Shown: positions 2,611 to 64,000 of the stretch, piece by piece
How the letters are laid out: every line of letters begins with the position of its first letter
Position numbering within the stretch: position 1 is the first letter of the stretch
DNA from: a virus
Strand: one strand, 5' to 3'
Length of the DNA: 64,000 nucleotides
IMG/VR virus record: IMGVR_UViG_3300028840_005153
Coordinates: 12,049 to 76,048 of that record
Translations under genes and position numbers: made by a program
The notes under the pieces: model-generated
What the model was told of the DNA's origin: nothing
The model's input: the letters and a program-made list of their open reading frames with translations, nothing else
Database searches by the model: none

Positions 2611-3393
2611 ATGGCTAAAAAAGAAAAAGGTTTTTCGGTAGAAACTGAGTCTTTGAAAGATTTTCTTAGGAGAGTTTTCCTTAATGGTGCGGTTGATTCT
2701 TGCGTTTTAGAAATTGATGATGAAGGGTTTGCCGAAGTTTATGCAGTAGATGTTTCAAATGTTCTTTTCCTCTATGTTAGCGAAGACCTTGGTATCGAAG
2801 ATGAAATGGAAATTGGCCTTGGCAATCTTGATCTTTTGAATAAATTTGTTTCTACAATAAAGGAAGATAAAGTTTCAGTTAGTATAGATAAGAATCGCCT
2901 TGTAATTGCGAGAGATAAATTTGGCCGTTTGGATTATCTTCTTACTTCTGCTGAGCTTGTGCCTACAGCATTGGAAGAGAAAGAAGACACGATAGAAAAG
3001 TTAATGGACGCTTGTACTATTGAGGTTATATTGAATGCTGATTTTGCTGCTACACTCGCCAGTTATTACAGCATGGTGAAAGCGAAAGAAATAACTTTAA
3101 AATATATTGATGGGAATTTTTATGTTGTTGGAGGAACAGATACGGGTCACAAATATGAAATACCAATTGATGGAGAAGTAAATGCCGTTGAGGGTGAAAA
3201 CGAAGAGGATGATTTTACTGTTAGTGTTTATGGTGATTTCTTCCTGTCTATTCTTGGAGTTCTTGATTTTGATGAAGAGCCGAAACTTATGCTTGCACCA
3301 AATTCCCCGGCAGTAATTGTGCAAGGAGAAGATAATGAAAATGTATGGGGGATAGCGCCAATTTCTATTGAAGGGGGAGGCGATGAAGATTAG
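2611..3393 (+). CDS. DNA sliding clamp (PCNA/T4 gp45-like)
   Basis: 260 aa, very acidic, N-terminal AVDVSNV and C-terminal WGIAPI resembling PCNA (..D.S.V / YLAP); directly upstream of clamp loader genes. Confidence 0.7.
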   Translation: MAKKEKGFSVETESLKDFLRRVFLNGAVDSCVLEIDDEGFAEVYAVDVSNVLFLYVSEDLGIEDEMEIGLGNLDLLNKFVSTIKEDKVSVSIDKNRLVIARDKFGRLDYLLTSAELVPTALEEKEDTIEKLMDACTIEVILNADFAATLASYYSMVKAKEITLKYIDGNFYVVGGTDTGHKYEIPIDGEVNAVEGENEEDDFTVSVYGDFFLSILGVLDFDEEPKLMLAPNSPAVIVQGEDNENVWGIAPISIEGGGDED

Positions 3394-4309
3394 GAATTAT
3401 ATATGGTATGAAAAGTATCGGCCAACTTCATTAGCTAATCTGTCGCTTCCGGTAAAGGTAAAAAAGCAATTTAAAAAATATATCAAAGATAAACAAATTC
3501 CACACCTACTTTTCCATGGACCTCCTGGTTCTGGAAAGACAACTATTGCAAATATCCTTATTAAAAATATTCCTTGCCGTTCATTGGTTTTAAATGCTTC
3601 TTCAGTGGATCGTGGCATTAGCACCATCAAGGGCAAGGTGAAAGAGTTTGCTTCCAGTCAGGCTTTGAAAGATGAAATAAAAATTGTTTTCTTTGATGAA
3701 GCCGATGGTTTAACACCTGATGCACAAATGGGTTTGAAGAATACGATAGAAACTTATTCTGGAAATTGCCGTTTTATTTTTACTGCGAACAGATTGCATA
3801 AAGTTATTGATGCCATCCGTAGCCGTCCAATAATCTTTGAATTTAATCAGGTTGATAGAAAAGATTTACTCAAACAAATGACGCATATATTAGAGGAAGA
3901 AGATGTTGAATTTGAAGTAGAAGATATTGAAGAAATTATAGATCGTTTTTTTCCTGATGTAAGAACAATCGTAAATAATTTGCAAGCTGCTTCGTATTCT
4001 GGTAGTTTGGATATAGAAAATTTATCTTCCTTTGGTATTGAACCACATGAAATAACTCAGCTTATTACCGAAGGTAATCTCAAAGAGATAAGGGTGAAAG
4101 TAAATGGCTTGAGTGATTTTTCTTTTATCTATCGTTATTTGTTTGATGAGTATTTGCCTGAGCTTGATACGGAAAGTGGAATTGAATTTTCCTCTTCGAT
4201 AGTTAAACATTTAAGCCAGGATACTTTTGTTGCAGATCGTACTTTGAATTTCCTTGGCTTTTGTGTAGATGTTATGGATATCCTGGAAGTTTCGGAGATA
4301 AAATTTTAA
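3383..4309 (+). CDS. Clamp loader AAA+ subunit (RFC small subunit/T4 gp44-like)
   Basis: WYEKYRP, HLLFHGPPGSGKTT, LNASS.RGI, DEAD, RFIFTAN, AIRSR; ATG 3383 follows GGGGAGG. Confidence 0.92.
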   Translation: MKIRNYIWYEKYRPTSLANLSLPVKVKKQFKKYIKDKQIPHLLFHGPPGSGKTTIANILIKNIPCRSLVLNASSVDRGISTIKGKVKEFASSQALKDEIKIVFFDEADGLTPDAQMGLKNTIETYSGNCRFIFTANRLHKVIDAIRSRPIIFEFNQVDRKDLLKQMTHILEEEDVEFEVEDIEEIIDRFFPDVRTIVNNLQAASYSGSLDIENLSSFGIEPHEITQLITEGNLKEIRVKVNGLSDFSFIYRYLFDEYLPELDTESGIEFSSSIVKHLSQDTFVADRTLNFLGFCVDVMDILEVSEIKF

Positions 4310-4761
4310 TGGAATTTTTTGATTATATAAAAAACCTTTTCACCAAAGGAGAGGAGATTACTTCCACTTCAGAGTATCCAAATATGTGGATGGTAAATCG
4401 TTTTATTAGTGGAAGCCCTATCTCTTTTGAAATCGCACAGGAACTTAATCTTTATCTTTCACGCTTGCCTGATTGGGCTGCCGCGATGTTCTTATACCGT
4501 ACCATACCGAAGACTGAGAGGGCTCCTTGGCTTGTTTATAGTAAAAAGCAGGTGTTACCATACCCTGAAGAATTAATAGCTAAAATAAGCGGATGCCTTA
4601 ATTGTAGCACCATTTCGGCAATTCAATATATTTCTCTTTTGGAAAATAGCGGCGTTGATACGTATCAACTTTTTGGATTAAAGAGGAAACCAAATGGGAA
4701 GAAAACTTCGAAGAAGAAAAACACCTCAAAGAGTAAGCGTAAAAAGAAAAAAAATGAGTGA
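4309..4761 (+). CDS. Probable clamp loader small subunit (gp62-like)
   Basis: Overlaps the loader stop codon; MVNRFIS motif and size typical of gp62-like proteins. Confidence 0.55.
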   Translation: MEFFDYIKNLFTKGEEITSTSEYPNMWMVNRFISGSPISFEIAQELNLYLSRLPDWAAAMFLYRTIPKTERAPWLVYSKKQVLPYPEELIAKISGCLNCSTISAIQYISLLENSGVDTYQLFGLKRKPNGKKTSKKKNTSKSKRKKKKNE

Positions 4762-5137
4762 ATTTCTCGGCATGAAAAACCGAGAAGGAAATCTTATAAA
4801 AAAATATGAGAATATAATTGAAGGTAGGACTAACGAAGAGAGGAGAGAGATTGAACGTAAATTAATGAAGCCTGATGTTCTGCCGCCCTATGTTGGGCCG
4901 AAAGTAAATCGTGGCCCTTTAGCAAAAAGGACTGTTAAATTTTTCTTTCCTTCTTCAGATGATGTTGAAATACTTTCGCATCATGTTAAAATTAATAATT
5001 ATGTTGAACTTAATTCTTATGATGTAGACTTAATCATGCGCTTTGTGGAATTGTTGGAAGAAGGAACTCTTCGTTATGATAAAGATTCTAAGAGAATTAT
5101 TTTCGTCAGCGACCGTGGAGAAGAGTATCCGCTCTGA
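4694..5137 (+). CDS. Hypothetical protein
   Basis: ORF in operon with GAGG RBS. Confidence 0.5.
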   Translation: MGRKLRRRKTPQRVSVKRKKMSEFLGMKNREGNLIKKYENIIEGRTNEERREIERKLMKPDVLPPYVGPKVNRGPLAKRTVKFFFPSSDDVEILSHHVKINNYVELNSYDVDLIMRFVELLEEGTLRYDKDSKRIIFVSDRGEEYPL

Positions 5138-5153
5138 TGGTGTCAATATTTAT

Positions 5154-5624
5154 ATGATTAAAAATAGATTTATAAAGCGAAGAGTTTTTTGTTTTTGGTG
5201 CGGGAATGCTAATGTAATTGATGGTACTGAAGCAAATTTTCTTCATAATTTTAACACATATTATCAGAAGATGAACAGCGGTCATGCGACAATTTGTAAG
5301 CATTGCGGGAAAATTATTTATACCGCTTTATATAAAAATAAAATCATAAGTGGAAGAAGTGTTAAACATTTAAGGAGAAGAAAAATGATCCTTGAATCGA
5401 AGCAAAGTCATGAAGTTATTGATGCACAAAAATTCGTAGAATTTATTGTTTTGAAAAAAGCTGAATTGGAATTGCCTTTAAAAAAGACTTTTACTGATAC
5501 GGATACTTGTCCGTTGTGCGGAGGGCTTTTAGTTATTCATTTTGTGCCTATCAATTCTGAAGGAAATAAAGTAATTACGATGGGCGGATGTCAAAGTAAA
5601 GAATGTTTTTCCTGGAGGGAATAA
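5154..5624 (+). CDS. Hypothetical Zn-finger protein
   Basis: CFWC, CKHC, CPLC and C..C motifs; start uncertain. Confidence 0.5.
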   Translation: MIKNRFIKRRVFCFWCGNANVIDGTEANFLHNFNTYYQKMNSGHATICKHCGKIIYTALYKNKIISGRSVKHLRRRKMILESKQSHEVIDAQKFVEFIVLKKAELELPLKKTFTDTDTCPLCGGLLVIHFVPINSEGNKVITMGGCQSKECFSWRE

Positions 5625-5626
5625 TC

Positions 5627-7051
5627 ATGAAAAAGAAATCAACAAGGGAAGAGATTATCCATGAATCGAAGAAGTTTGTGGAAAGCAATAAAGGCTTGAA
5701 ACTCGATATGAATGCGAAAGTAAAACAGTATATTTCTCCTCGTATCAGTAGTGAATATATGGATTGCAGTATGCCAATGACTTTCGATAGTTATTCCCAT
5801 TGTAGCTTAGGATGCCTTTATTGTTTCGCTTATTTTTTCAAAAGTAATAATACTTCATTTAATGAAAATCTTCATGTTTCCGCAATGGAAAAAATGATTC
5901 CAGCAATTGAAGGTAAACCAAAATCATATAGAGAAAAGATTTTTCATAGACATTTTTATTCGAAGAAATTTCTTCTTCATTGGGGCGGCATGGCTGATCC
6001 TTTTTGTAACTTTGAAAGATCAAACAGGAGAGCATTTAATTTCCTGGAAGCTCTTGGAGCAAATAATTATCCAACTCTTTTTTCTTTCAAGGGTGCAACA
6101 ATTTTTCATCCAAGATATCGTAGACTTTTTGAAAAGTATTCGTCTCAACAAAATTTTGCTTTTCAAGTTTCTATTGTTACTGGCGATGATAAACTTTCAA
6201 GGGAAGTAGAAATAGGTGTTCCTTCTCCCACAAGAAGATTAGAAGCAATCAAAATGTTAAGTGAGATGGGATATTATACTATACTTCGTCTTCGCCCTTT
6301 TATTATTGGCGTCACAGATCGTAGTCTTGATGAATTACTTGGAAAGGCTTTGGAAGCTGGAATCAAAGGCGTCAGTATGGAATTTTTTGCGGTAGATGTT
6401 AGATGTAGTTCGGGAATGAGGACTCGCTATAAATGGCTTGCACAAGTAATGGGAGTCAAAGATTTACTTTCATATTTCAAAGATTTATCTCCATCAGAAC
6501 GTGGTGGATATATGCGATTAAATCGTTTAGTGAAAGAAATTTATGTCCGTAAAGTCTTTGAATTTTGCATGACACATGGATTAACTTTTGGTGTAAGCGA
6601 TCCGGATTTCAAAGAATTAAATTCTTCGGGTAGTTGTTGCGGTATGCCTGATGATTTTCCCGATAACCGTTTGCTTGAAAATTGGACACGTGGTCAATTA
6701 ACATATGCTTTGAAAGAAGCAAGAAGAAAATATCATTTGGAAAATAAGGATCAATATCTTCGGTTTAATGATGTCTTTCATAAGGAAGACACTTACCTTG
6801 ACGATATAGAATTAACAAATGATCACGTTGCTTGTGCTGAACTTACTGCCGCTGAAAGGAAGAGTTATACTTATCGAAGTTTAGCACAAAAGACTTGGAA
6901 TAATTTGCGCAGTCCTGGGAATCCAAGAAATTACTTTCATGGTAAAATACTTCCTGTCGGAATAGATCAAGATGGAAATCTCGAATTTAAATATGTTGAA
7001 CATGACTACGAAAAAAGATGGGCAAAAGACGGTCTTGATCTTTCGTATTGA
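5627..7051 (+). CDS. Radical SAM enzyme (spore photoproduct lyase-like clade)
   Basis: CSLGCLYC CxxxCxxC motif, GGMADPF, E.GVPSP..RL, RLRPFI; RBS GGAGG. Confidence 0.85.
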   Translation: MKKKSTREEIIHESKKFVESNKGLKLDMNAKVKQYISPRISSEYMDCSMPMTFDSYSHCSLGCLYCFAYFFKSNNTSFNENLHVSAMEKMIPAIEGKPKSYREKIFHRHFYSKKFLLHWGGMADPFCNFERSNRRAFNFLEALGANNYPTLFSFKGATIFHPRYRRLFEKYSSQQNFAFQVSIVTGDDKLSREVEIGVPSPTRRLEAIKMLSEMGYYTILRLRPFIIGVTDRSLDELLGKALEAGIKGVSMEFFAVDVRCSSGMRTRYKWLAQVMGVKDLLSYFKDLSPSERGGYMRLNRLVKEIYVRKVFEFCMTHGLTFGVSDPDFKELNSSGSCCGMPDDFPDNRLLENWTRGQLTYALKEARRKYHLENKDQYLRFNDVFHKEDTYLDDIELTNDHVACAELTAAERKSYTYRSLAQKTWNNLRSPGNPRNYFHGKILPVGIDQDGNLEFKYVEHDYEKRWAKDGLDLSY

Positions 7052-7770
7052 AAGTTAAAAACATGCGAAGAAGAAAAACGGTTTTAATAACTGGCCCTGC
7101 CGATATGAGGACTTGGCGAAAGGGTTGGATATGCCAATCAGGTCCAACTTGTTATGTTGGGAATCCACCGGAATATTGTATTCCGGAAAAGTATCGATGT
7201 TCTTTGAAAGAAGTATGGGCCATTATTCGTTGGGTAAAAGAGAGAATTGGAAAATTTAAAATCGAGAGGGGAAGAATAGTGCCTGAACAAAGAAGGATTC
7301 GCCGACGAAAGAAAAGCAAAACAAATTATCTTCCTAAGGATAATTGGAGTGCTATTTTTATTGAACCTTATGGGAGAAGATTTTATGATGGCTATATTGC
7401 TTTATTAGTTGGAGCAGAATATGTGGGTGATTATCCAAATGGGAATTACAATATCTTGGAAGAGCCGAGAATAAAACTTGATGATTTAAATGTTGTTTTG
7501 AATTATGTTAACAAGCAATTCCCTGATGGGTGGCGCGTCAATGGAAAAGAAGTCATTGCAGGTAAACCCGATCCTATTCGATTGCCTGAGAGGAAAATAC
7601 CTGAGTGGGAAAGGAAAGCAAAAGAGAGAAAGAAGGAAGAGGAAAGTAAAAATTATCAGAAACCTTTTTCAAAACCAAAAGGGATACGTGAAGCTTTAAT
7701 AGTAAAGGAAGAAAAGCCACGTCAAATTAAAAGAAGAAAGTCATTCAGAAAAATACGGAGAAGAAAATGA
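7048..7770 (+). CDS. Hypothetical basic protein
   Basis: ORF overlapping both neighbours; several RRRK motifs. Confidence 0.5.
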   Translation: MKVKNMRRRKTVLITGPADMRTWRKGWICQSGPTCYVGNPPEYCIPEKYRCSLKEVWAIIRWVKERIGKFKIERGRIVPEQRRIRRRKKSKTNYLPKDNWSAIFIEPYGRRFYDGYIALLVGAEYVGDYPNGNYNILEEPRIKLDDLNVVLNYVNKQFPDGWRVNGKEVIAGKPDPIRLPERKIPEWERKAKERKKEEESKNYQKPFSKPKGIREALIVKEEKPRQIKRRKSFRKIRRRK

Positions 7771-9167
7771 AAATCGCAGTTACTATTTACCCTCTTGATG
7801 GTATGGGTGGCATTATTCCCAATGTGGAAAATCAATTGTGGGGATTGAAAGAACTTGGACACGAAGTGGATTTTTATCTTCTCGGTTGGCAGAATAAATT
7901 TATGAAAGGAAAGTATTCAGATAATGAATTACTTTCGACAAAAAATAATGGATGGCGTAAAGGCTGTTTATATCCTGTTCATGGAACTAAGGGTTGGAAT
8001 TTTCCTCTGGAAAGAAAAATTCCATATAAGGGAAAAGAAAATATCAAAAGGGCAAAGCGAATACTTTCAAAGTATGATTTTATCATTTGGCAAATTCCTG
8101 TCCCCACAAGGCAAAAAGCAAACAGGGGAAATGTTGATTGGATAGAATTATATAAGGCAAACGAAGTAAATGTTCTTTATTGCCATGACTGTCATCTTAT
8201 TGAGAGATATCCTTATATCTACGAAATCAAAGATAATATTGTCGGTGTTGCGACTACTCATACTGCCGGATATGGTGTTATGAAACTTGGAGGGATTCAA
8301 AAAGCATTGATATTTAGTAGCCATAATATAAATAGCACTCAAAGATCGTACTCATATTATAGGAGAGAAAAAGGATTTCTTTCGTTACAGAATTTTAAAA
8401 ATACTAAAAATACTGATTTGCTTTTACGTTCAATACCATATATTTCAAAAGATATTTCAAAACATATGGCGGGAGGTGGCCGGGAACAGTTATATATGAC
8501 AAGCGAAGAAAAGTGCAAGCCTGAGTATTACTGCTCTCGAATTTATGATCCCGACCTTCCATTAAAAATACAGAAGAAGAAAATGAAAATATGGGATTAT
8601 GCGATAGAAAATAATTTGATTTGGCATGGGTGGGTTTCACCTGCCGAAAGAGATAAATTGCTGAGAAGTATTAGGACACTTGTTGATTTGAGTTGGGGAA
8701 AATATATCGAAGAGTATGGTGGAACTTTTAATCGTGTCTTTGTGGATGCTTGTATAAATGGAGCTATTCCAATCAGAGTAAAATATAATACCAATAAGGA
8801 AAGAAGTATAAATTCAATACTCAAAGAGAATGAACATTATATACCATTTCCTATCCCACCTAATGCTACTCCAAAAGAAATTGCTGAAGTTATAAATGAG
8901 GCTAACAATCTTGAAAGAAAAAAGTGGAAAGAGATATTGAGCAGTAATTATAAACTATTACTTAATTTTGATAGGAAGCATTGTGCTCAACAATTTATTA
9001 ATCTCGCAAAGAATAAACCGGCAGGATTTTTTAATGATGTAAAAATACTTTCACAAACTGATCCGAAGATAATTATAAAATCTAATAAGATGATGAAAGA
9101 GTTTTTTGGTCAGGAAAAAGTAACGATAAAAAAGAATAGCGGTATGAGGAAAATTTTGAGGAGCTGA
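7767..9167 (+). CDS. Glycosyltransferase (GT-B fold)
   Basis: MKIAV...GGI...LKELGHEVD N-terminus; K..DLLLRSI, HGWVS, F.RVFVDA..NGAIP C-terminal nucleotide-sugar-binding region. Confidence 0.7.
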   Translation: MKIAVTIYPLDGMGGIIPNVENQLWGLKELGHEVDFYLLGWQNKFMKGKYSDNELLSTKNNGWRKGCLYPVHGTKGWNFPLERKIPYKGKENIKRAKRILSKYDFIIWQIPVPTRQKANRGNVDWIELYKANEVNVLYCHDCHLIERYPYIYEIKDNIVGVATTHTAGYGVMKLGGIQKALIFSSHNINSTQRSYSYYRREKGFLSLQNFKNTKNTDLLLRSIPYISKDISKHMAGGGREQLYMTSEEKCKPEYYCSRIYDPDLPLKIQKKKMKIWDYAIENNLIWHGWVSPAERDKLLRSIRTLVDLSWGKYIEEYGGTFNRVFVDACINGAIPIRVKYNTNKERSINSILKENEHYIPFPIPPNATPKEIAEVINEANNLERKKWKEILSSNYKLLLNFDRKHCAQQFINLAKNKPAGFFNDVKILSQTDPKIIIKSNKMMKEFFGQEKVTIKKNSGMRKILRS

Positions 9168-9168
9168 A

Positions 9169-10167
9169 ATGTCTTTGAATAGTTTATACTGTTTAAAAAT
9201 TTGTCCAGTTGAAGGATGTAATCGTTTTTGTAAATTCTGTGGAGGTTATTCTATATGGAAAACAAAGGAAGACAGGAAGTATAAATTTATGGATTTGGAG
9301 TTAGCAGAAAAAATGGCGTTTTCTTTTGGTAATGAATACGAAAGTAAAAGGATAAGTATTGGGCAATTTGGCGAGCCTTTACTTCACCCAAATATCTTTG
9401 ATATAATTCAAGCCTTTAGAAGTTATGGCCCTTCGCATATGCAAACGATTTTCAGTAATGGTTTATGTTTGATAGAAAATGGAGCAGATTTTATCTGTGA
9501 AATTTTTGCGAAAGGTATAGATTTTCTTATCATAGATACCTATACGAAGGGTGAAGAGATTCGTAAGGTTGTTAAAAAATCAAAGATAAAGATGATAGAT
9601 TTTTACAAGGATAAACCAAAAAGTTTTCCAGGATTTATGTATCAAAAGCCTGGAAAGGAAAAAGTAATAGTTATCGTAGATGATCTTGGAAGTAAAGCTG
9701 GAATAGATAGGCGGAGAGGGATAGTCAATTCTGCTGGAAATTCTAATCCTAAAATTTTAAAAAAGTATGGGATATTTCCTATTGTTAATCCTATCGAAAG
9801 TAAATGCGTTCGGCCTTTTAGGGAGATGATTGTTTGCCATGATGGGGCTGTTCCTATTTGCTGTATTGATTGGAAGAGGGATTGCCTATTGGGAGTTTTT
9901 ACAAATTCTATCAGTAAAATTTGGAATTCAAAATCTTTTCAAGCCGTAAGATATTTGCTGTATAATAAAAAGAGAATTTTTAATCCTTGTTACAAGTGTG
10001 ATTTTAGCGGAGGTAACCGAAGAGGATTTTTAAAATGCCCTGAAGAAGTTGATTATGGTTATCTTGAAAGGATGCAAAAGCGTTCAAAGTATAAAAGCAA
10101 ATATTCAGTTGATCCTTTTTGGTATGATAAAGGGCTAAATGGAATTACTTCTTTTCTTAGGAGATGA
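9169..10167 (+). CDS. Radical SAM/SPASM-domain protein
   Basis: CNRFCKFC, GEPLLHP, SNG; SPASM-like CVRPF..GAVPICC.DW..LG..IWNS..C..C. Confidence 0.85.
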   Translation: MSLNSLYCLKICPVEGCNRFCKFCGGYSIWKTKEDRKYKFMDLELAEKMAFSFGNEYESKRISIGQFGEPLLHPNIFDIIQAFRSYGPSHMQTIFSNGLCLIENGADFICEIFAKGIDFLIIDTYTKGEEIRKVVKKSKIKMIDFYKDKPKSFPGFMYQKPGKEKVIVIVDDLGSKAGIDRRRGIVNSAGNSNPKILKKYGIFPIVNPIESKCVRPFREMIVCHDGAVPICCIDWKRDCLLGVFTNSISKIWNSKSFQAVRYLLYNKKRIFNPCYKCDFSGGNRRGFLKCPEEVDYGYLERMQKRSKYKSKYSVDPFWYDKGLNGITSFLRR

Positions 10168-60053: not shown

Positions 60054-60133
60054 GCCTCCACAAGTATTCTTTCCGTAATCCCCTATATTTAAAGCGTTTA
60101 CAGCCCACCGTATCATAGCCTTTTTTTAGCCGT

Positions 60134-60157
60134 TTTTATGCGCATATGCGCATAAAA
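60134..60157. repeat. Perfect 24-bp palindrome TTTTATGCGCATATGCGCATAAAA
   Basis: Read directly; lies in a T-tract-rich non-coding region. Confidence 0.9.
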
Positions 60158-60312
60158 GGCATTTTTTAGCCTAAAATTCCATTTTTTTTGCCTAAATATC
60201 CATTTTTTTGGATATTGGGTTTTTTGCTGTAAAAATAGGCATTTACAGCCTGATGGCATATACCGTAAACGCCATAAATGCCTTAAATAACAATAAATAG
60301 TGCCGATTTTGC

Positions 60313-60341
60313 TTGTAAAACCCTATAGCCTTTAATATTAT
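60313..60341 (+). promoter_or_regulatory. Sigma70-type promoter (TTGTAA-17 bp-TATTAT) for leader and putative early operon
   Basis: -35 at 60313-60318, -10 at 60336-60341, 17-bp spacer, AT-rich upstream. Confidence 0.6.
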
Positions 60342-60364
60342 TTAGTTGGTTCTTTTAAATAGCT

Positions 60365-60948
60365 TTAAGGGTAAACGGCAAGGGCAGCGTTAAACGGCTC
60401 CCGGCTCCGGCGGTCAAACAGTAAAACCAAAGGGCAAAAGTCGGGCGCAATATAGCAAAGCCTACCCTTAATAAAATGCTCCTCCAAAACATGCCTTGAG
60501 AAGAGTAACTGCCAAACGTAGCTAATTTGGCTCCTTGACAAATAAAGAAAAGAGAAAAAGTAAATGGCTTCCATAGCGTTTACCTTTTGGTGCTTTTGCA
60601 CTTGCGCATCGGGGAGGACCGCGATGGCAATACTTTTCTTTCCACAGGACCCCAATTCTCTCCTCCAACTTTAGCAAGTTACTTGCTAAGGATTCCACGT
60701 TCACCACGTGGTGAGGATATGGCTCCTGGCAATTTCTACTTTCCTTATCAGCAATAAAAATCCACGGAGAAAAATTTACCCGAAATGAACCAATGGTTTG
60801 AAGACGTCGAGTAAAACCATTCGGGATCCAATATAGGTGCGGGTCTATATTACGGCCGTCGATAGGCAAGTTACTTGCCTTCGTAGAAGTCAGGCTCGTG
60901 GGAAGTAGAATAGCAAATCCTCCTTTAAGACGTGGCTTCGGCCACGTC
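60365..60948 (+). ncRNA. Putative long structured leader or ncRNA
   Basis: No credible + strand ORF; many complementary segments (see findings). Confidence 0.5.
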
Positions 60949-60951
60949 AAA

Positions 60952-61020
60952 GATCGAAACCGGGAAAGTTTCTTTCCCGGTCTATCCATGGTGGTGCATG
61001 GGTACTGATGAAGATCAGCC
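60952..61020 (+). ncRNA. Type II hammerhead ribozyme HH1 (predicted cleavage after 60982)
   Basis: GATC-GAAA-C[CGGGAAAG/CTTTCCCG]GTC[TATCCATG-GTGGTG-CATGGGTA]CTGATGA-A-GATC. Confidence 0.88.
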
Positions 61021-61047
61021 AATTATCTTTCAAAAGGAGGAGTAAAA

Positions 61048-61452
61048 ATGACGAAGCGAAGCGAAGCGTGGAGCGGCATGAATTGGATAAGGCAAGAAAA
61101 AAGACTTGCGATATATCTTCGAGATGGATGCGCTTGTATGTATTGCGGATCTACTGTAGAAGATGGAGCAATCATTACTCTTGACCATATCAAACCACAT
61201 ATCAATGGCGGTAGTAATAGCGAAAGAAATTTGGTCACATGCTGCAAAAAATGCAATTCCTCTCGCGGAAATCGTAAGGTCGAAGACTTTGCGGCGGATG
61301 TTGCTAAATATATCAATCACGGTATCACGGCGGAAGATATATTGGCAACAATCAGAAGCAATACAAGAAAGTCCCTGAAAAAATTCAAAGCGGAAGCTAA
61401 AGAATTGATTTCAAGGCGTGGTTCCGCTGCTAAAGTATTAGCCAAAATTTAA
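61048..61452 (+). CDS. HNH endonuclease
   Basis: RDG..CMYCG, LDHIKP...GGSN...NLVTCC..CN. Confidence 0.9.
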   Translation: MTKRSEAWSGMNWIRQEKRLAIYLRDGCACMYCGSTVEDGAIITLDHIKPHINGGSNSERNLVTCCKKCNSSRGNRKVEDFAADVAKYINHGITAEDILATIRSNTRKSLKKFKAEAKELISRRGSAAKVLAKI

Positions 61453-61453
61453 A

Positions 61454-61525
61454 CCCGAAACGGGGGAAGTAATTACTTCCCCGTCGATAGTGGGTGGTGC
61501 CACTATCCTGATGATGGGAGCCATC
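61454..61525 (+). ncRNA. Type II hammerhead ribozyme HH2 (predicted cleavage after 61485)
   Basis: CCC-GAAA-C[GGGGGAAGT/ACTTCCCC]GTC[GATAGTGG-GTGGTG-CCACTATC]CTGATGA-T-GGG-A-GCCATC. Confidence 0.9.
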
Positions 61526-61562
61526 ACAGTTAAATAATCTTTTTTAAAAGGAGGAGTAAAAA

Positions 61563-61865
61563 ATGAAACATTTTAAAATCGAAGTCGTTTACGTTTCCTC
61601 TGGTCGGGCACTTCAAACCGTTTATGCCTTCGGCAAAAAACAAATGGTTGAAGCCGTCGAAGAAATTCTTCTGGAAATGAAGAATTACACTCCTAATCGT
61701 GTTATTTACTGCGAGACGGTCGACAAAGATTGGGAGTCAATTAAGGCGGAAGAAGTTTGGCAATATGAGAAGTCTTGCAAATGCTTTCGCAAACTTAACA
61801 AAAGCGAAATGCAGGACTGGCTCGATGCAAATGGTCAGTGTGAAAAAACCGGCGGATGGGCGTAA
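61563..61865 (+). CDS. Hypothetical putative early protein
   Basis: RBS AAAAGGAGG. Confidence 0.7.
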   Translation: MKHFKIEVVYVSSGRALQTVYAFGKKQMVEAVEEILLEMKNYTPNRVIYCETVDKDWESIKAEEVWQYEKSCKCFRKLNKSEMQDWLDANGQCEKTGGWA

Positions 61866-61896
61866 ATAAAATCGGGGTCGAAGCAATTCGACCCCA

Positions 61897-61965
61897 TTCG
61901 AAACGCGTCAAAGTAATTTGGCGCGTCGGTAGGAGGTGGTGCTCCTATCCTGACGAGAAGCCATC
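61897..61965 (+). ncRNA. Type II hammerhead ribozyme HH3 (predicted cleavage after 61927)
   Basis: TTC-GAAA-C[GCGTCAAA/TTTGGCGC]GTC[GGTAGGAG-GTGGTG-CTCCTATC]CTGACGA-GAA-GCCATC. Confidence 0.9.
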
Positions 61966-61994
61966 GCAGAAAATCTTTTAAAAGGAGGAGTAAA

Positions 61995-62282
61995 ATGAGA
62001 GAATTTACAAAAAATGACTGGTTGTGCTACGAAGGTTGTGAAAGCCAAATACCAATGATTGGCGAAGTAAAAGTAAATTTCAATGGTAAAATCTACGAAG
62101 GGGAAGTGGTCGTAGATGGGAGCCATGTTGAAATTTATACTTACCACAACGGAAGCGAAGATGCCTTATGGTATCAGATAACTTTTCCTTCGTATCTTTT
62201 TGCAATCAATGCAGCTATGCAATCAATCGAAAATAAAACCCTTTCAGATGCAATGCTCAAGGAAATGGGTTTTAAATCTTAA
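61995..62282 (+). CDS. Hypothetical putative early protein
   Basis: RBS AAAAGGAGG. Confidence 0.7.
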   Translation: MREFTKNDWLCYEGCESQIPMIGEVKVNFNGKIYEGEVVVDGSHVEIYTYHNGSEDALWYQITFPSYLFAINAAMQSIENKTLSDAMLKEMGFKS

Positions 62283-62283
62283 T

Positions 62284-62358
62284 TCCCGAAACGGCGGAAG
62301 ACTTTACTTTCCGCCGTCCACCGGAGGTGGTGCTTCGGTGCTGACGATGGGAGCCATC
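62284..62358 (+). ncRNA. Type II hammerhead ribozyme HH4 (predicted cleavage after 62318)
   Basis: TCCC-GAAA-C[GGCGGAAG/TTTCCGCC]GTC[CACCGGAG-GTGGTG-CTTCGGTG]CTGACGA-T-GGGA-GCCATC. Confidence 0.9.
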
Positions 62359-62388
62359 GTAGATAATCTTTTTAAAAGGAGGAGTAAA

Positions 62389-62574
62389 ATGAGTGATCTT
62401 AAATTACCGGAAGGCGGATCTTATTATTGCGCGGATTGCTATCGGAAATTTAAATCTTTGAACCATTTTAACCGATATCGCAGTCGTTGCGCTCCACTCC
62501 TTTTTGGGGTGGATGGTAGAAAACGTCTTACAGTTAAGAAGATCAACGGGATGTGGAAACTTGCTAAAAAGTAA
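62389..62574 (+). CDS. Small hypothetical putative early protein (61 aa, CxxC)
   Basis: ATG 62389 after AAAAGGAGG; YYCADC. Confidence 0.65.
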   Translation: MSDLKLPEGGSYYCADCYRKFKSLNHFNRYRSRCAPLLFGVDGRKRLTVKKINGMWKLAKK

Positions 62575-62575
62575 A

Positions 62576-62647
62576 TTCGAAACGGTCGAAGATATTACTT
62601 CGGCCGTCCACCGGAGGTGGTGCTTCGGTGCTGAAGAGATAGCCTTT
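62576..62647 (+). ncRNA. Type II hammerhead ribozyme HH5 (predicted cleavage after 62608; short stem II)
   Basis: TTC-GAAA-C[GGTCGAAG/CTTCGGCC]GTC[CACCGGAG-GTGGTG-CTTCGGTG]CTGAAGA-GAT-AGCC. Confidence 0.8.
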
Positions 62648-62674
62648 GGAAACAATTTTAAAAGGAGGAGAATT

Positions 62675-62947
62675 ATGCAAACTCAAGTCACAGTAGAATT
62701 GAGGACCAGGAGTGGCCGGAAAATTACTGAAGACAAAGTCGCTTGCATGGAACAGATAGGATTGGAAATTATCTTTTCCGGAGCCTTTAAATTTAGCGAT
62801 GATTCGGTTACAGTTTTCCGGGCGAAGAAAACTTTTTCCTCGGTCTTTAATGCTGAGCAGTTTTACTTTGAGGTCCATCGTTGCGGTGGCATTAGCAAGC
62901 GGATGCTCAAGGCGCTCGATTTTATCTACGAAGATGCTTGCATTTAA
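62675..62947 (+). CDS. Hypothetical putative early protein (90 aa)
   Basis: ATG 62675 after AAAAGGAGG. Confidence 0.65.
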   Translation: MQTQVTVELRTRSGRKITEDKVACMEQIGLEIIFSGAFKFSDDSVTVFRAKKTFSSVFNAEQFYFEVHRCGGISKRMLKALDFIYEDACI

Positions 62948-63019
62948 TTCGAAACGGGGGAAGTAATTACTTCCCCGTCGTCGCGAGGTGGTGCTCGTGG
63001 CCTGATGATGATAGCCATC
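62948..63019 (+). ncRNA. Type II hammerhead ribozyme HH6 (predicted cleavage after 62979; short stem II)
   Basis: TTC-GAAA-C[GGGGGAAGT/ACTTCCCC]GTC[GTCGCGAG-GTGGTG-CTCGTGGC]CTGATGA-T-GAT-AGCCATC. Confidence 0.82.
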
Positions 63020-63045
63020 AGAAACATTTTAAAAGGAGGAAAATT

Positions 63046-63387
63046 ATGAAAAGCGAAATGACGCAGGAAGCCTTGAAAAACGTAGTTTTGGCGAATGTCT
63101 ATGAGTGGTCAAGAAAAGAATTAAATTCATCCAATGTTAAACCAGTCAGCAAATGGGTGAAAGACTTTCTTTATAACCATTGGGAAAGGGTTCCTAAATT
63201 TCATAGTATCGAAGTATATGGCGATGATAAAAAGCATCTTCTTACCGAAGATTTTTCTATCAATTTTGCTGCCAAGCTCGAACGTGAAAAAATAACTCTT
63301 TTTATTCTCTTTGATATCATGGGACATTCTCTTCTCGTAAATACCGAGGGCTATAATTACTGTCGTTATACACGCCTTTTTTACTAA
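63046..63387 (+). CDS. Hypothetical putative early protein (113 aa)
   Basis: ATG 63046 after AAAAGGAGG; C-terminal VNTEGYNYCRY. Confidence 0.65.
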   Translation: MKSEMTQEALKNVVLANVYEWSRKELNSSNVKPVSKWVKDFLYNHWERVPKFHSIEVYGDDKKHLLTEDFSINFAAKLEREKITLFILFDIMGHSLLVNTEGYNYCRYTRLFY

Positions 63388-63458
63388 CCCGAAACGGGGA
63401 AGTAATTACTTCCCCGTCGGCAATAGGTGGTGCTATTGCCCTGATGATGGGAACCATC
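63388..63458 (+). ncRNA. Type II hammerhead ribozyme HH7 (predicted cleavage after 63418)
   Basis: CCC-GAAA-C[GGGGAAGT/ACTTCCCC]GTC[GGCAATAG-GTGGTG-CTATTGCC]CTGATGA-T-GGG-A-ACCATC. Confidence 0.9.
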
Positions 63459-63489
63459 GCAGATAATCTTTTTTAAAAGGAGGAGAATT

Positions 63490-63825
63490 ATGAGTGATCT
63501 TATTACTGCTGACAAGGCTGAAGACATTGCTACTGATCTTTATTCCTGGTCTCAAAGTGCCGTTGGTGACTTGGCAGGATGTGACGAAGTAATGGCAGAT
63601 GATTTTTGGGAAGATCCAAATGTAATGGGTGATCTTCTTGGAGATCGCATCTTCGATGCTTCGATATCTTTCGTACGTAAATATGACAAGTCGTTAAGCG
63701 GTAAGCCTTTTTTCAAAGTAGTAGATGAAATCTTCGTAGAAATTTGCAAGGCAATGCTCAGAAGATATAACGATCAGGCATTGGTCAAAGCAATGGATGT
63801 CCTCATTCAACGTCATAGTAATTAG
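63490..63825 (+). CDS. Acidic hypothetical putative early protein
   Basis: RBS AAAAGGAGG. Confidence 0.7.
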   Translation: MSDLITADKAEDIATDLYSWSQSAVGDLAGCDEVMADDFWEDPNVMGDLLGDRIFDASISFVRKYDKSLSGKPFFKVVDEIFVEICKAMLRRYNDQALVKAMDVLIQRHSN

Positions 63826-63839
63826 CAAAGGAGAAGATC

Positions 63840-64000
63840 ATGCTCGGTTACGCCTTAAAACTTAAATCGGGGAAATGGGCAACTGAAAGAAAAACTGGTG
63901 ATGCAGTTTGGTTCATTAATCGAGAGATCGCAGAATATGTTAATTGGCTTAAATTAAATGATGCAGCCGAAGTAGTAGAAGTAAGATTGGAAAGGGATTG
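63840..64000 (+). CDS. Hypothetical protein (runs off window end)
   Basis: ATG after AAGGAG; open to end of window. Confidence 0.5.
   Translation, partial: MLGYALKLKSGKWATERKTGDAVWFINREIAEYVNWLKLNDAAEVVEVRLERD

Follow-up and report, generated by a model that had tools for sequence, protein, structure and literature searches.

A large and regular array of type II hammerhead ribozymes that probably divides a long phage transcript into short messages

In 2011, Perreault et al. described type II hammerhead ribozymes, the pseudoknot that forms between their loop I and 3′ tail, and clusters of these ribozymes on either side of single phage genes, and they also put forward the idea that hammerheads process a long phage transcript (PMC3088659). 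The triple clusters examined in that study, from C. scindens, A. caulinodans, and A. tumefaciens, cut in vitro (PMC3088659, Figure 3); cutting of these prophage clusters was complete during in vitro transcription, and one also cut in E. coli. The cleavage rate of a type II pseudoknotted hammerhead exceeds 1.2 per min in 0.5 mM Mg (PMC3088659), and three type II hammerheads of Desulfovibrio vulgaris have been caught cutting (PMC8782182). The role of bacterial and phage hammerheads was still considered open in a 2019 review (PMC6765202). The array described below is an addition to this known phenomenon rather than a new one, with a layout known in phages since 2011. Our full-text literature search yielded no description of arrays of this size, and Weinberg et al. 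2015, which lay outside the search, may show larger clusters.

The window, a 64-kb stretch of DNA, ends where a 76-kb IMG/VR phage record ends. A sequence-only reading of this DNA had proposed seven type II hammerheads, one ahead of each of seven genes. Indeed, all seven elements match the Rfam Hammerhead_II model (RF02276) on the plus strand with 41.4 to 49.8 bits, compared with a gathering score of 37 (Rfam 15 cmscan), and chance can be excluded because the per-match E-values are 1e-5 to 1e-8. HH7 was removed by the fast filters when the whole window was scanned and was recovered in a 6-kb scan; this cmscan search of the 64-kb window revealed no hammerhead matches beyond the seven.

The CUGANGA, GAAA, and GUC segments are intact and correctly ordered in all 11 complete copies of the record (seven in the window and four at the contig start, described below), and positions 1.1-2.1 and 10.1-11.1 are likewise paired in every one. 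A regular-expression and fold parse assigns to each window copy an 8-bp stem I with the loop GUGGUG, a loop-closed stem III of 7 to 12 bp whose hairpin folds at -11 to -16 kcal/mol, and an open stem II of 2 to 4 bp, wherein the closing of stems I and III by loops is the type II topology. An extra U between A9 and G10.1, treated as an insertion by the Rfam alignment, is carried by five of the seven window copies and by 8 of the 11 complete copies. Thus, the scores, core, stem order, and covariation (see below) agree with the proposed topology and invariant core, and the identity of the seven window elements as predicted type II hammerheads is confirmed by covariance-model scores together with covariation. 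The parse also reproduced exactly the seven cleavage sites and seven gene starts that had been proposed (coordinates below), as well as the sizes of the predicted products (503, 442, 391, 290, 371, and 439 nt). Six stem I sequences were recovered as first read, with two corrections: stem I of HH4 is identical to that of HH5, and stem II of HH5 and HH6 is only 2 bp (UC/GA).

All of these features lie on the plus strand. An ORF-free leader (60054 to 60951; ORF listing), which presumably holds the operon promoter or promoters, precedes HH1; no plus-strand ORF of at least 40 aa occurs between 60053 and 61008, and a GC hairpin (60930 to 60949) stands directly before the ribozyme. HH1 (60952 to 61024; 41.4 bits) has stem II GAUC/GAUC, a predicted cleavage site 3′ of C60982, and a hairpin with the potential to hide the core at 61005 to 61018. 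Gene 1 (61048 to 61452) encodes a 134-aa HNH endonuclease (Pfam PF01844, E=2e-12; PHROG HNH families), and HH2 (61453 to 61526; 47.1 bits; cleavage predicted 3′ of C61485; core-hiding hairpin 61508 to 61529) begins 1 nt past its stop codon (61450 to 61452). Gene 2 (61563 to 61865; 100 aa) is followed by the extra hairpin that had been noted ahead of HH3, a GC-rich structure at 61873 to 61896 (sequence and hairpin scan) between the stop codon and the ribozyme. Similar hairpins also precede three copies at the contig start. HH3 itself (61896 to 61966; 46.4 bits; cleavage predicted 3′ of C61927; stem II UUC/GAA; core-hiding hairpin 61950 to 61969) precedes gene 3 (61995 to 62282; 95 aa), and HH4 (62284 to 62359; 49.8 bits; cleavage predicted 3′ of C62318; core-hiding hairpin 62341 to 62362) precedes gene 4 (62389 to 62574; 61 aa). 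HH5 (62575 to 62648; 44.0 bits; cleavage predicted 3′ of C62608), which has A at N7 and a weakened pseudoknot (tail GCCUUU), is followed by gene 5 (62675 to 62947; 90 aa), HH6 (62947 to 63020; 41.7 bits; cleavage predicted 3′ of C62979; core-hiding hairpin 63002 to 63021), gene 6 (63046 to 63387; 113 aa), HH7 (63387 to 63459; 43.0 bits in the 6-kb scan; cleavage predicted 3′ of C63418; tail ACCAUC; core-hiding hairpin 63441 to 63462), and gene 7 (63490 to 63825; 111 aa). Gene 8 (63840 to 64000), incomplete at the contig end, follows after a 14-nt gap with no ribozyme of its own (ORF listing and parse). Searches of Pfam and PHROGs assigned no family to the six small window genes other than the HNH gene, and among the genes of the entire array they name only the HNH endonuclease, an AAA ATPase, and DUF3150.

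Every copy lies in an intergenic gap on the gene strand, within a cassette that reads, in order, upstream stop codon, 1 to 30 nt, hammerhead, A/U-rich spacer, AAAGGAGG, and start codon. Most ribozymes start 1 to 2 nt past the stop codon. This architecture, as originally perceived in the window, recurs in eight related records, wherein the stop-to-ribozyme and core-to-start distances are kept and the AAA ATPase is 45 to 55% identical; the common layout is a stop codon, a ribozyme, a spacer of 26 to 48 nt, a Shine-Dalgarno site, and a start codon.

The array does continue past the window, with one cut and four complete copies at the other end of the record. The cut copy lies at G000:C1:1-27, and the complete copies are at positions 479, 1716, 3281, and 4424 of the same contig. 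Scores of 52.6, 43.8, and 33.3 bits were obtained at the contig start, the copy at C1:479 being unreported by the Rfam search though its parts are complete, and two of the four complete copies exceed the gathering score. Because the contig start begins inside a hammerhead and holds four more, the array comprises at least 12 copies, which form a single cluster of ~7.6 kb, all on the gene strand, in units of one to three genes. The proposal of one hammerhead before each gene holds for the seven window genes but not for at least four genes within the array as a whole, among them gene 8, which would share a message with gene 7 because no ribozyme precedes it. The array genes without a ribozyme of their own would be released within two- or three-gene units. 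The phage origin that had been proposed is supported by the fact that the window lies in an IMG/VR virus record, which CheckV judges to be 95% complete. The array follows a 0.9-kb non-coding stretch and is itself followed by helicase and primase genes, and the label “early operon” is drawn only from this position.

Scans for sigma-70-type promoters found sites to be no commoner in the leader and between genes than in shuffled sequence, and a scan for intrinsic terminators between genes likewise gave no excess over shuffles. One terminator match was discarded because it consists of a core-tail hairpin followed by the U-rich spacer. A search of sequencing runs with window positions 60900 to 63900 returned no RNA run and only two DNA metagenome runs (sediment and seawater), which may be where the record came from and whose contigs, when compared with the contig start, break at the repeated cassettes, none passing base 1.

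To judge the structural model, we compiled 54 distinct copies from this phage and the eight related records. Stem III was misaligned by MAFFT, and only its five outer pairs were used for the model and the counts. Among these copies, 97.7% of cells pair, compared with 63% in shuffles and at most 41% with slid partners, and 14 of 16 pairs show compensatory double changes. In this genome taken by itself, double changes affect all eight pairs of stem I and none is broken. These compensated changes argue that the hammerhead structure is under selection. The pseudoknot that had been proposed between loop I and the 3′ tail is borne out in the same manner, wherein loop and tail covary: the duplexes of 47 distinct loop/tail pairs have a mean of -4.34 kcal/mol for cognate compared with -2.71 kcal/mol for non-cognate partners, and 0 of 2000 permutations were as good. 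Matched loop/tail classes include GUGGUG/GCCAUC, CUUUAGCAA/AGCUAAA, and UUGAUUA/AAAUCAA. The predicted pseudoknot has 5 to 6 bp in eight copies of this phage and ~3 to 4 contiguous bp in the three copies in which N7 is A.

The phage clade carries 5 to 15 ribozymes per record, with 14 to 15 in one relative. In this phage and in seven related records, a hammerhead occupies the two slots that precede the AAA ATPase and DUF3150-like genes (L103 being represented by its AAA ATPase slot). The corresponding slots contain a rearranged pistol-like ribozyme in L105 and, in L104, a covarying, unclassified long hairpin. For the L105 elements, the best scores with the pistol model RF02679 are 29.1 and 27.1 bits, below the gathering score of 34.5; six copies have P2, P3, the UUAAG...GCG loop, and the GU cut site, and these parts covary, whereas a GCAAGA loop complementary to UCUUGU resides in a hairpin downstream of P2, not upstream. 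These elements would be expected to work like a pistol but are not canonical RF02679 members. For the L104 hairpin, which fits no known ribozyme class, a relaxed-E-value Rfam search gave only spurious microRNA matches; an RNase III site and an undescribed ribozyme are both conceivable. RNA cleavage is the property that hammerheads and pistols share, and the finding that other elements, including a different ribozyme class, fill the same slots in relatives supports the view that the slot serves for RNA cutting. We found no cultured phage with an AAA ATPase more than 30% identical to that of this phage. The sole genome match is an 83-kb contig binned with a Desulfobacteraceae MAG, which is a weak hint at the host because the contig is probably the phage itself.

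We consider it probable, with good though not full confidence, that working type II hammerheads in an intercistronic cassette cut one long RNA into short, hairpin-ended messages. From the motifs, their conservation, covariation, and placement, which we observe directly, we infer co-transcription, in vivo cutting, the end chemistry, and an effect on message stability, as follows. The block of small genes would be read as one long RNA that starts after the 0.9-kb non-coding stretch and continues past the end of the record into the AAA ATPase and DUF3150-like genes. Each hammerhead would fold co-transcriptionally, with the loop I/3′-tail pseudoknot holding stems I and II side by side, and would cleave 3′ of C17. 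With just 2 to 4 bp in the open stem II, the two products should separate at once. The upstream message would end with the stem III hairpin and one C carrying a 2′,3′-cyclic phosphate, and the downstream message would carry a 5′-OH on its first nucleotide, which is also the first paired base of the stem I hairpin. The outcome would be messages of one to three genes, each with its own strong ribosome-binding site, and hairpins flush with its two ends should protect each message against end-dependent RNases and make it independent of its neighbors. Any benefit of 5′-OH and hairpin ends depends on the RNases of the host. Self-cutting of a polycistronic RNA into single-gene mRNAs with hairpin ends, as proposed from the window, is a reasonable interpretation that gains strength from the retention of the same slots across the clade and from their occupation by a second ribozyme class in one relative.

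In this phage, the leftover CUGANGA would pair with the tail to form a second 5′ hairpin, which may either lock the product or, before cutting, compete with the active fold and set the rate. This core-hiding hairpin, wherein the tail is paired with CUGANG, occurs in all 11 complete copies as well as the cut one, with predicted energies of -2.7 to -10.8 kcal/mol, whereas 37 distinct copies from related phages essentially lack it. When the pseudoknot is left out, all 11 copies have as their minimum-energy fold the inactive one, with the core paired to the tail, and it is 2.4 to 9.7 kcal/mol more stable than the active secondary structure. A crude energy sum places the active and inactive states within a few kcal/mol of each other. 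Disturbing the pseudoknot by deletion slowed cutting 20- to 100-fold in the experiments of Perreault et al. (PMC3088659) and, by analogy, the interrupted pseudoknot in the three N7=A copies could slow cutting to the same extent. Since the inactive fold is favored and the pseudoknot is interrupted in these three copies, some copies may cut slowly or conditionally. Furthermore, because most ribozymes begin so close to the stop codon, a terminating ribosome would cover stem II and GAAA and could hinder folding.

These observations are consistent with a fairly unlikely alternative in which cutting is regulated or graded. Each ribozyme would then be a two-state element whose tail pairs either with loop I to give the active pseudoknot or with the CUGANG core to give the inactive form, and temperature, Mg, a protein, the ribosome, or transcription speed would set the fraction cut at each junction and thereby the ratios or timing of the products. 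In addition to the presence of the hairpin in every copy here and the closeness of the two states, the catalytically free N7, which is U, A, or C, always has a matching base in the tail, namely A (once G), U, or G, and where N7 is A this matching costs the integrity of the pseudoknot, as if core pairing weighed more. However, copies with the same N7 share their entire 3′ module, so only about three independent N7 changes are represented. The hairpin may also form simply after cleavage as a product lock or 5′ cap, neither a ligand pocket nor a protein site is evident, and related phages do without the hairpin. We hold only tentatively, and with more doubt than confidence, the wider reading that an uncultured marine-sediment phage clade uses interchangeable RNA-cutting cassettes in which cleavage itself is selected, and that the combination found here of hammerheads with an N7-covarying core-hiding hairpin makes cutting switchable or rate-tuned at each junction separately.

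It is improbable that the array represents mainly selfish or structural repeats, namely a mobile cassette of ribozyme plus ribosome-binding site that spreads by copying or gene conversion, wherein RNA cutting is incidental or benefits the cassette rather than gene expression. Stem identity is 0.50 within the genome (up to 0.86 in one relative) compared with 0.34 for the same slot across genomes, the extended Shine-Dalgarno sequence AAAGGAGGAG occurs 11 times on the plus strand and 0 times on the minus strand of the record, which by count only is about the number of cassettes, and assemblies break at the cassettes. Yet the slots are long-kept and refilled by other RNA classes, real genes obtain their ribosome-binding site from the cassette, and the stems in this genome have diverged under strict compensation, which argues that their structure is kept by selection. 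Most improbable of all is that cutting is followed by ligation, such that gene units circularize or splice via chimeric hammerheads made of one 3′ half and the 5′ half of the next copy: hammerheads are capable of ligating, loop I and the tail (all of the tertiary elements) sit on the downstream product, and the chimeric stem II of the HH5-HH6 unit equals the cognate one, but in four of the six window units this stem consists of no more than the single G-C pair or of G-U wobbles, the ends cannot be held together by so short a stem II, and circular or spliced products were sought in such clusters by Perreault et al. and none was found (PMC3088659).

Returning to the processing of a long transcript, the locus is a large and very regular example of a phage hammerhead array that probably chops its transcript into short messages. 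The clade amounts to a clean natural experiment in which ribozymes are fixed relative to stop codons and ribosome-binding sites. Slots persist while sequences turn over, and sister phages use a different self-cleaving class or a plain long hairpin; this pattern argues that the cut itself is the selected function. The clade also supplies matched constructs for studying effects on message stability, translation, and stoichiometry.

With the RF02276 family, the copies share the core, the permuted topology with an open, short stem II, and the pseudoknot, down to a match with the loop UGGUG and the tail AGCCA of the family consensus. They differ in that most carry the extra U after A9 and that every copy of this phage has, after the tail, a core-pairing sequence absent from the family consensus. 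The prophage clusters of Perreault et al. likewise place several hammerheads of the same orientation between phage genes and were assigned the same proposed RNA-cutting role, whereas three clustered ribozymes were tested there and at least 12 are present here, with 14 to 15 in a relative. Here, in addition, the cassette is fixed and tied to the stop codon and ribosome-binding site, and slots are conserved throughout a phage clade while the class of element is replaced. A further comparison is with pistol ribozymes, which are found near phage genes (RF02679; Harris et al. 2015, PMC4604425). In L105 they take these intercistronic positions, although they belong to another ribozyme class and the L105 copies are sub-threshold, with the pseudoknot-loop hairpin downstream rather than upstream. 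Locus L076, an unrelated array, likewise has pistols next to hammerheads.

The likeness to phage T7 would be an analogy of function and not of membership. In T7, RNase III cuts the polycistronic early RNA between cistrons, and hairpin ends stabilize the messages. Intercistronic cutting and hairpin ends, both predicted here, are the shared features, and the long hairpins of L104 sit in the slots where this phage has ribozymes. In contrast, T7 processing needs a protein and none would be needed here, and the predicted ends are 5′-OH and 2′,3′-cyclic phosphate rather than the 5′-P and 3′-OH of T7. Synthetic insulators of the RiboJ type consist of a hammerhead and a hairpin ahead of a ribosome-binding site. 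The cassette of ribozyme, hairpin, spacer, and strong ribosome-binding site is their natural counterpart, in which the ribozyme would strip the upstream context to leave a hairpin and then an exposed ribosome-binding site, the core-tail hairpin corresponding to the added one. Unlike these insulators, the array is natural, is proposed to bring 12 repeats onto one transcript, and is of type II rather than type III, and each hammerhead is proposed to shape the 3′ end of the preceding message as well.

An Rfam scan of the whole window, together with a closer scan of 6 kb, yields seven matches to Hammerhead_II (RF02276), all on the + strand and scoring 41.4 to 49.8 bits relative to a threshold of 37 bits, and no further hammerhead matches in the 64-kb window. 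These seven elements (HH1 to HH7) fall at exactly the places named in the sequence-only reading, and parsing each copy into its parts reproduces without error all seven cut sites and start codons assigned there, along with the six stem I sequences and the six fragment lengths. As had also been claimed, five of the six internal copies start 1 to 2 nt after the upstream stop codon, and an extra hairpin is present ahead of HH3. Judged from these matches, the assignment of the seven elements as Hammerhead_II is secure. Each copy contains C-GAAA-C, followed by a stem III hairpin with a folding energy of −11 to −16 kcal/mol and GUC. Next are an 8-bp stem I with the loop GUGGUG, the CUGANGA core, a stem II strand of 2 to 4 bp, and a tail that reads (A)GCCAUC or a variant thereof. 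An A/U-rich spacer and AAAGGAGG then lead to the start codon, which is located 36 to 48 nt from the core.

We built a covariance model from 11 copies of the ribozyme in this phage and used it to search nine related loci, which were found via the AAA ATPase at 45 to 55% identity. Hammerheads are present in seven of the nine, with 5 to 15 in each and always on the gene strand. The sequence-only reading held that the stems change sequence and keep their pairing, and this pattern extends to the relatives. Among 54 distinct sequences, standard pairs occupy 97.7% of cells versus 63% when shuffled and at most 41% with slid partners, and compensatory double changes are found in 14 of 16 pairs. In this genome alone, both partners have changed in all eight pairs of stem I, with no pair broken. 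Separate support exists for the proposed pseudoknot between loop I and the 3′ tail. Cognate loop I/tail duplexes come to −4.34 kcal/mol versus −2.71 kcal/mol for non-cognate ones, none of 2000 permutations matches the cognate stability, and several of the matched loop I/tail classes are wholly different in sequence.

The window ends where its record ends (it spans bases 12049 to 76048 of a 76,048-bp IMG/VR virus record with a CheckV completeness of 95%), and the earlier question of whether the array continues past this point is answered by additional copies at the other end of the record. There, the record opens with the 3′ half of one more hammerhead (27 bases), and complete hammerheads follow on the gene strand at bases 479, 1716, 3281, and 4424. 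All 12 copies reside on the gene strand within ~7.6 kb, and none occurs in the remaining genome. The assembly ends inside a cassette, likely because contigs break at such repeats, as do the public contigs of two metagenome runs that carry this DNA. Given that a 99%-complete relative has hammerheads at both record ends as well, the two end clusters here are most simply viewed as one array.

This array bounds at least 17 genes, which include an HNH endonuclease, many small genes without a family, an AAA ATPase, and a DUF3150-like protein; helicase and primase genes come after it. The claim that one hammerhead precedes each gene holds for the seven window genes and fails for four other genes of the array that have no ribozyme of their own, three of them at the record start and the fourth at window position 63840. 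Thus, each released unit would comprise one to three genes. At four hammerheads, an extra GC-rich hairpin separates the ribozyme from the preceding stop codon (window 61873 to 61896, and 1686 to 1716, 3253 to 3276, and 4400 to 4424 of L011, the start of the same record), which would leave the upstream message with two 3′ hairpins after cutting. An ORF-free stretch of ~0.9 kb with several hairpins (window 60054 to 60951) lies ahead of the first hammerhead, and no promoter was identified within it. Two hairpins in this stretch, at about 60676 and 60866, carry the loop motif GCAAGUUACUUGC, and an 11-bp palindrome is located at 60133 to 60158.

In every relative, no more than a few bases separate the upstream stop codon from the start of the ribozyme, and the next start codon, with its Shine-Dalgarno site, is positioned 26 to 48 nt after the core. 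The slots before the AAA ATPase and DUF3150-like genes (the latter checked for orthology at 31 to 44% identity) are occupied by a hammerhead in this phage as well as in seven related records, except that the DUF3150 slot of one record (L103) was not seen. Ribozyme sequence is not conserved slot by slot, with a stem identity of 0.34 between genomes at a given slot versus 0.50 within a genome, so the slot persists and its occupant is renewed by within-genome copying. The value rises to 0.86 in one relative, a phage present as near-identical copies in three IMG/VR records from different samples (L098, L099, and L100), whose hammerheads differ very little among themselves, a similarity that points to a recent spread of the cassette or to gene conversion. 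Another record, L107 (JASFHE010000001.1, 83,343 bp), is binned in a Desulfobacteraceae MAG and encodes the AAA ATPase at 50% identity. Because it is about as large as a related 83-kb phage record, L107 is probably a phage genome that was binned with a possible host.

The covariance-model search revealed no hammerheads in two relatives, L105 and L104. L105 (IMGVR_UViG_3300014204_000018) carries six intercistronic pistol-like elements between 8480 and 13560 (near 8510, 8830, 9906, 11447, 12527, and 13462), in slots orthologous to the hammerhead slots of this phage. These elements score 27 to 29 bits as pistol ribozymes, below the Rfam threshold of 34.5, and they contain a GU cut site along with P2 and P3 stems that covary (P2 is CCCU/AGGG, once CCCG/CGGG). 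A conserved loop, GCAAGA, is complementary to an internal UCUUGU and is found in a hairpin downstream of P2 rather than upstream. From its sequence, the element resembles a pistol in which the first hairpin has been relocated to the 3′ side. L104 (IMGVR_UViG_3300033148_005588) has eight copies of a ~100-nt cassette between 6800 and 11860, in the ribozyme slots of related phages. The cassette forms a 60-nt imperfect hairpin with an outer helix that covaries (UUAACC/GGUUAA vs UUGACU/AGUCAA) and a folding z of −4.5 to −5.0 relative to shuffle controls, and the hairpin is followed by CUCCU, which is able to pair with the Shine-Dalgarno site. This hairpin has no Rfam match to a known ribozyme class, and it could act either as a target of RNase III or as a self-cleaving RNA of a kind not yet described.

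That one slot can be occupied by either of two unrelated self-cleaving classes argues that the selected function is the cut, and this replacement of hammerheads by pistol-like elements is the best evidence available here for such a function. A record from an unrelated high-GC phage or prophage, L076 (IMGVR_UViG_2744054895_000001), has a run of nine consecutive intergenic gaps (3742 to 9597) filled first by two canonical pistols (67 to 68 bits) and then by seven type II hammerheads, indicating that the design recurs outside this clade.

Cutting 3′ of C17 would leave the stem III hairpin at the 3′ end of the upstream RNA, followed by a single nucleotide with a cyclic phosphate, and the downstream RNA would start with a 5′-OH at the base that opens the stem I helix. 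Since only the 2 to 4 bp of stem II join the products, they would be expected to separate, making religation unlikely. Flush terminal hairpins, as well as the lack of a 5′ phosphate or a 3′-OH tail, hinder the end-dependent RNases of bacterial mRNA decay, and the released messages may be protected from such enzymes, depending on the host. The stop codon lies directly against the ribozyme, so that a ribosome terminating there would sit on stem II and the GAAA bases, and cutting would have to precede or alternate with upstream translation. The standard reading, wherein one long transcript cuts itself into gene-length messages, appears somewhat strengthened by the sequence comparisons.

In every copy of this phage, the bases directly 3′ of the tail can pair back onto CUGANG (C3 to G8) to give an inactive fold; among the pairing tail bases, the final CAG lies outside the pseudoknot. 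All 11 copies are predicted to form this core-hiding hairpin (−2.7 to −10.8 kcal/mol), which spans window positions 61005 to 61018, 61508 to 61529, 61950 to 61969, 62341 to 62362, 62631 to 62649, 63002 to 63021, and 63441 to 63462 for HH1 to HH7, respectively, and is essentially absent among 37 distinct copies of relatives. The catalytically free core base N7 is U, A, or C, and its partner is always A (once G), U, or G, respectively; in copies where N7 is A, namely HH5 and those at record bases 479 and 4424, the matching change interrupts the pseudoknot. Fold prediction favors the inactive fold by 2.4 to 9.7 kcal/mol when the pseudoknot is left out, and a crude pseudoknot energy term brings copies with a 6-bp pseudoknot to parity while the others stay inactive-leaning. 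Given that shortening such a pseudoknot from six base pairs to four made cutting ~20-fold slower (Perreault et al. 2011, PMC3088659), the junctions here may be cut at different rates. The hairpin might act as a brake or a switch, or it might cap the 5′ end of the product.

Natural type II hammerheads with a loop I/tail pseudoknot were already described by Perreault et al. 2011, who reported that prophage hammerheads flank single genes or short gene blocks and that triple clusters cut completely in vitro, and who proposed the processing of long phage transcripts to gene-length messages (PMC3088659). Cutting by type II hammerheads has been caught in vivo in Desulfovibrio vulgaris (PMC8782182), and a 2019 review regards the biological role of hammerheads as still “largely elusive” (PMC6765202). 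In literature searches that did not cover Weinberg et al. 2015, we found no published description of arrays of a dozen copies or of slot replacement. Two results worth following are the occupation of these slots in sister phages by RNA classes other than the hammerhead, and the lineage-specific core-hiding hairpin. Compared with these known systems, the array examined here is a large and very regular addition to an already known phenomenon.
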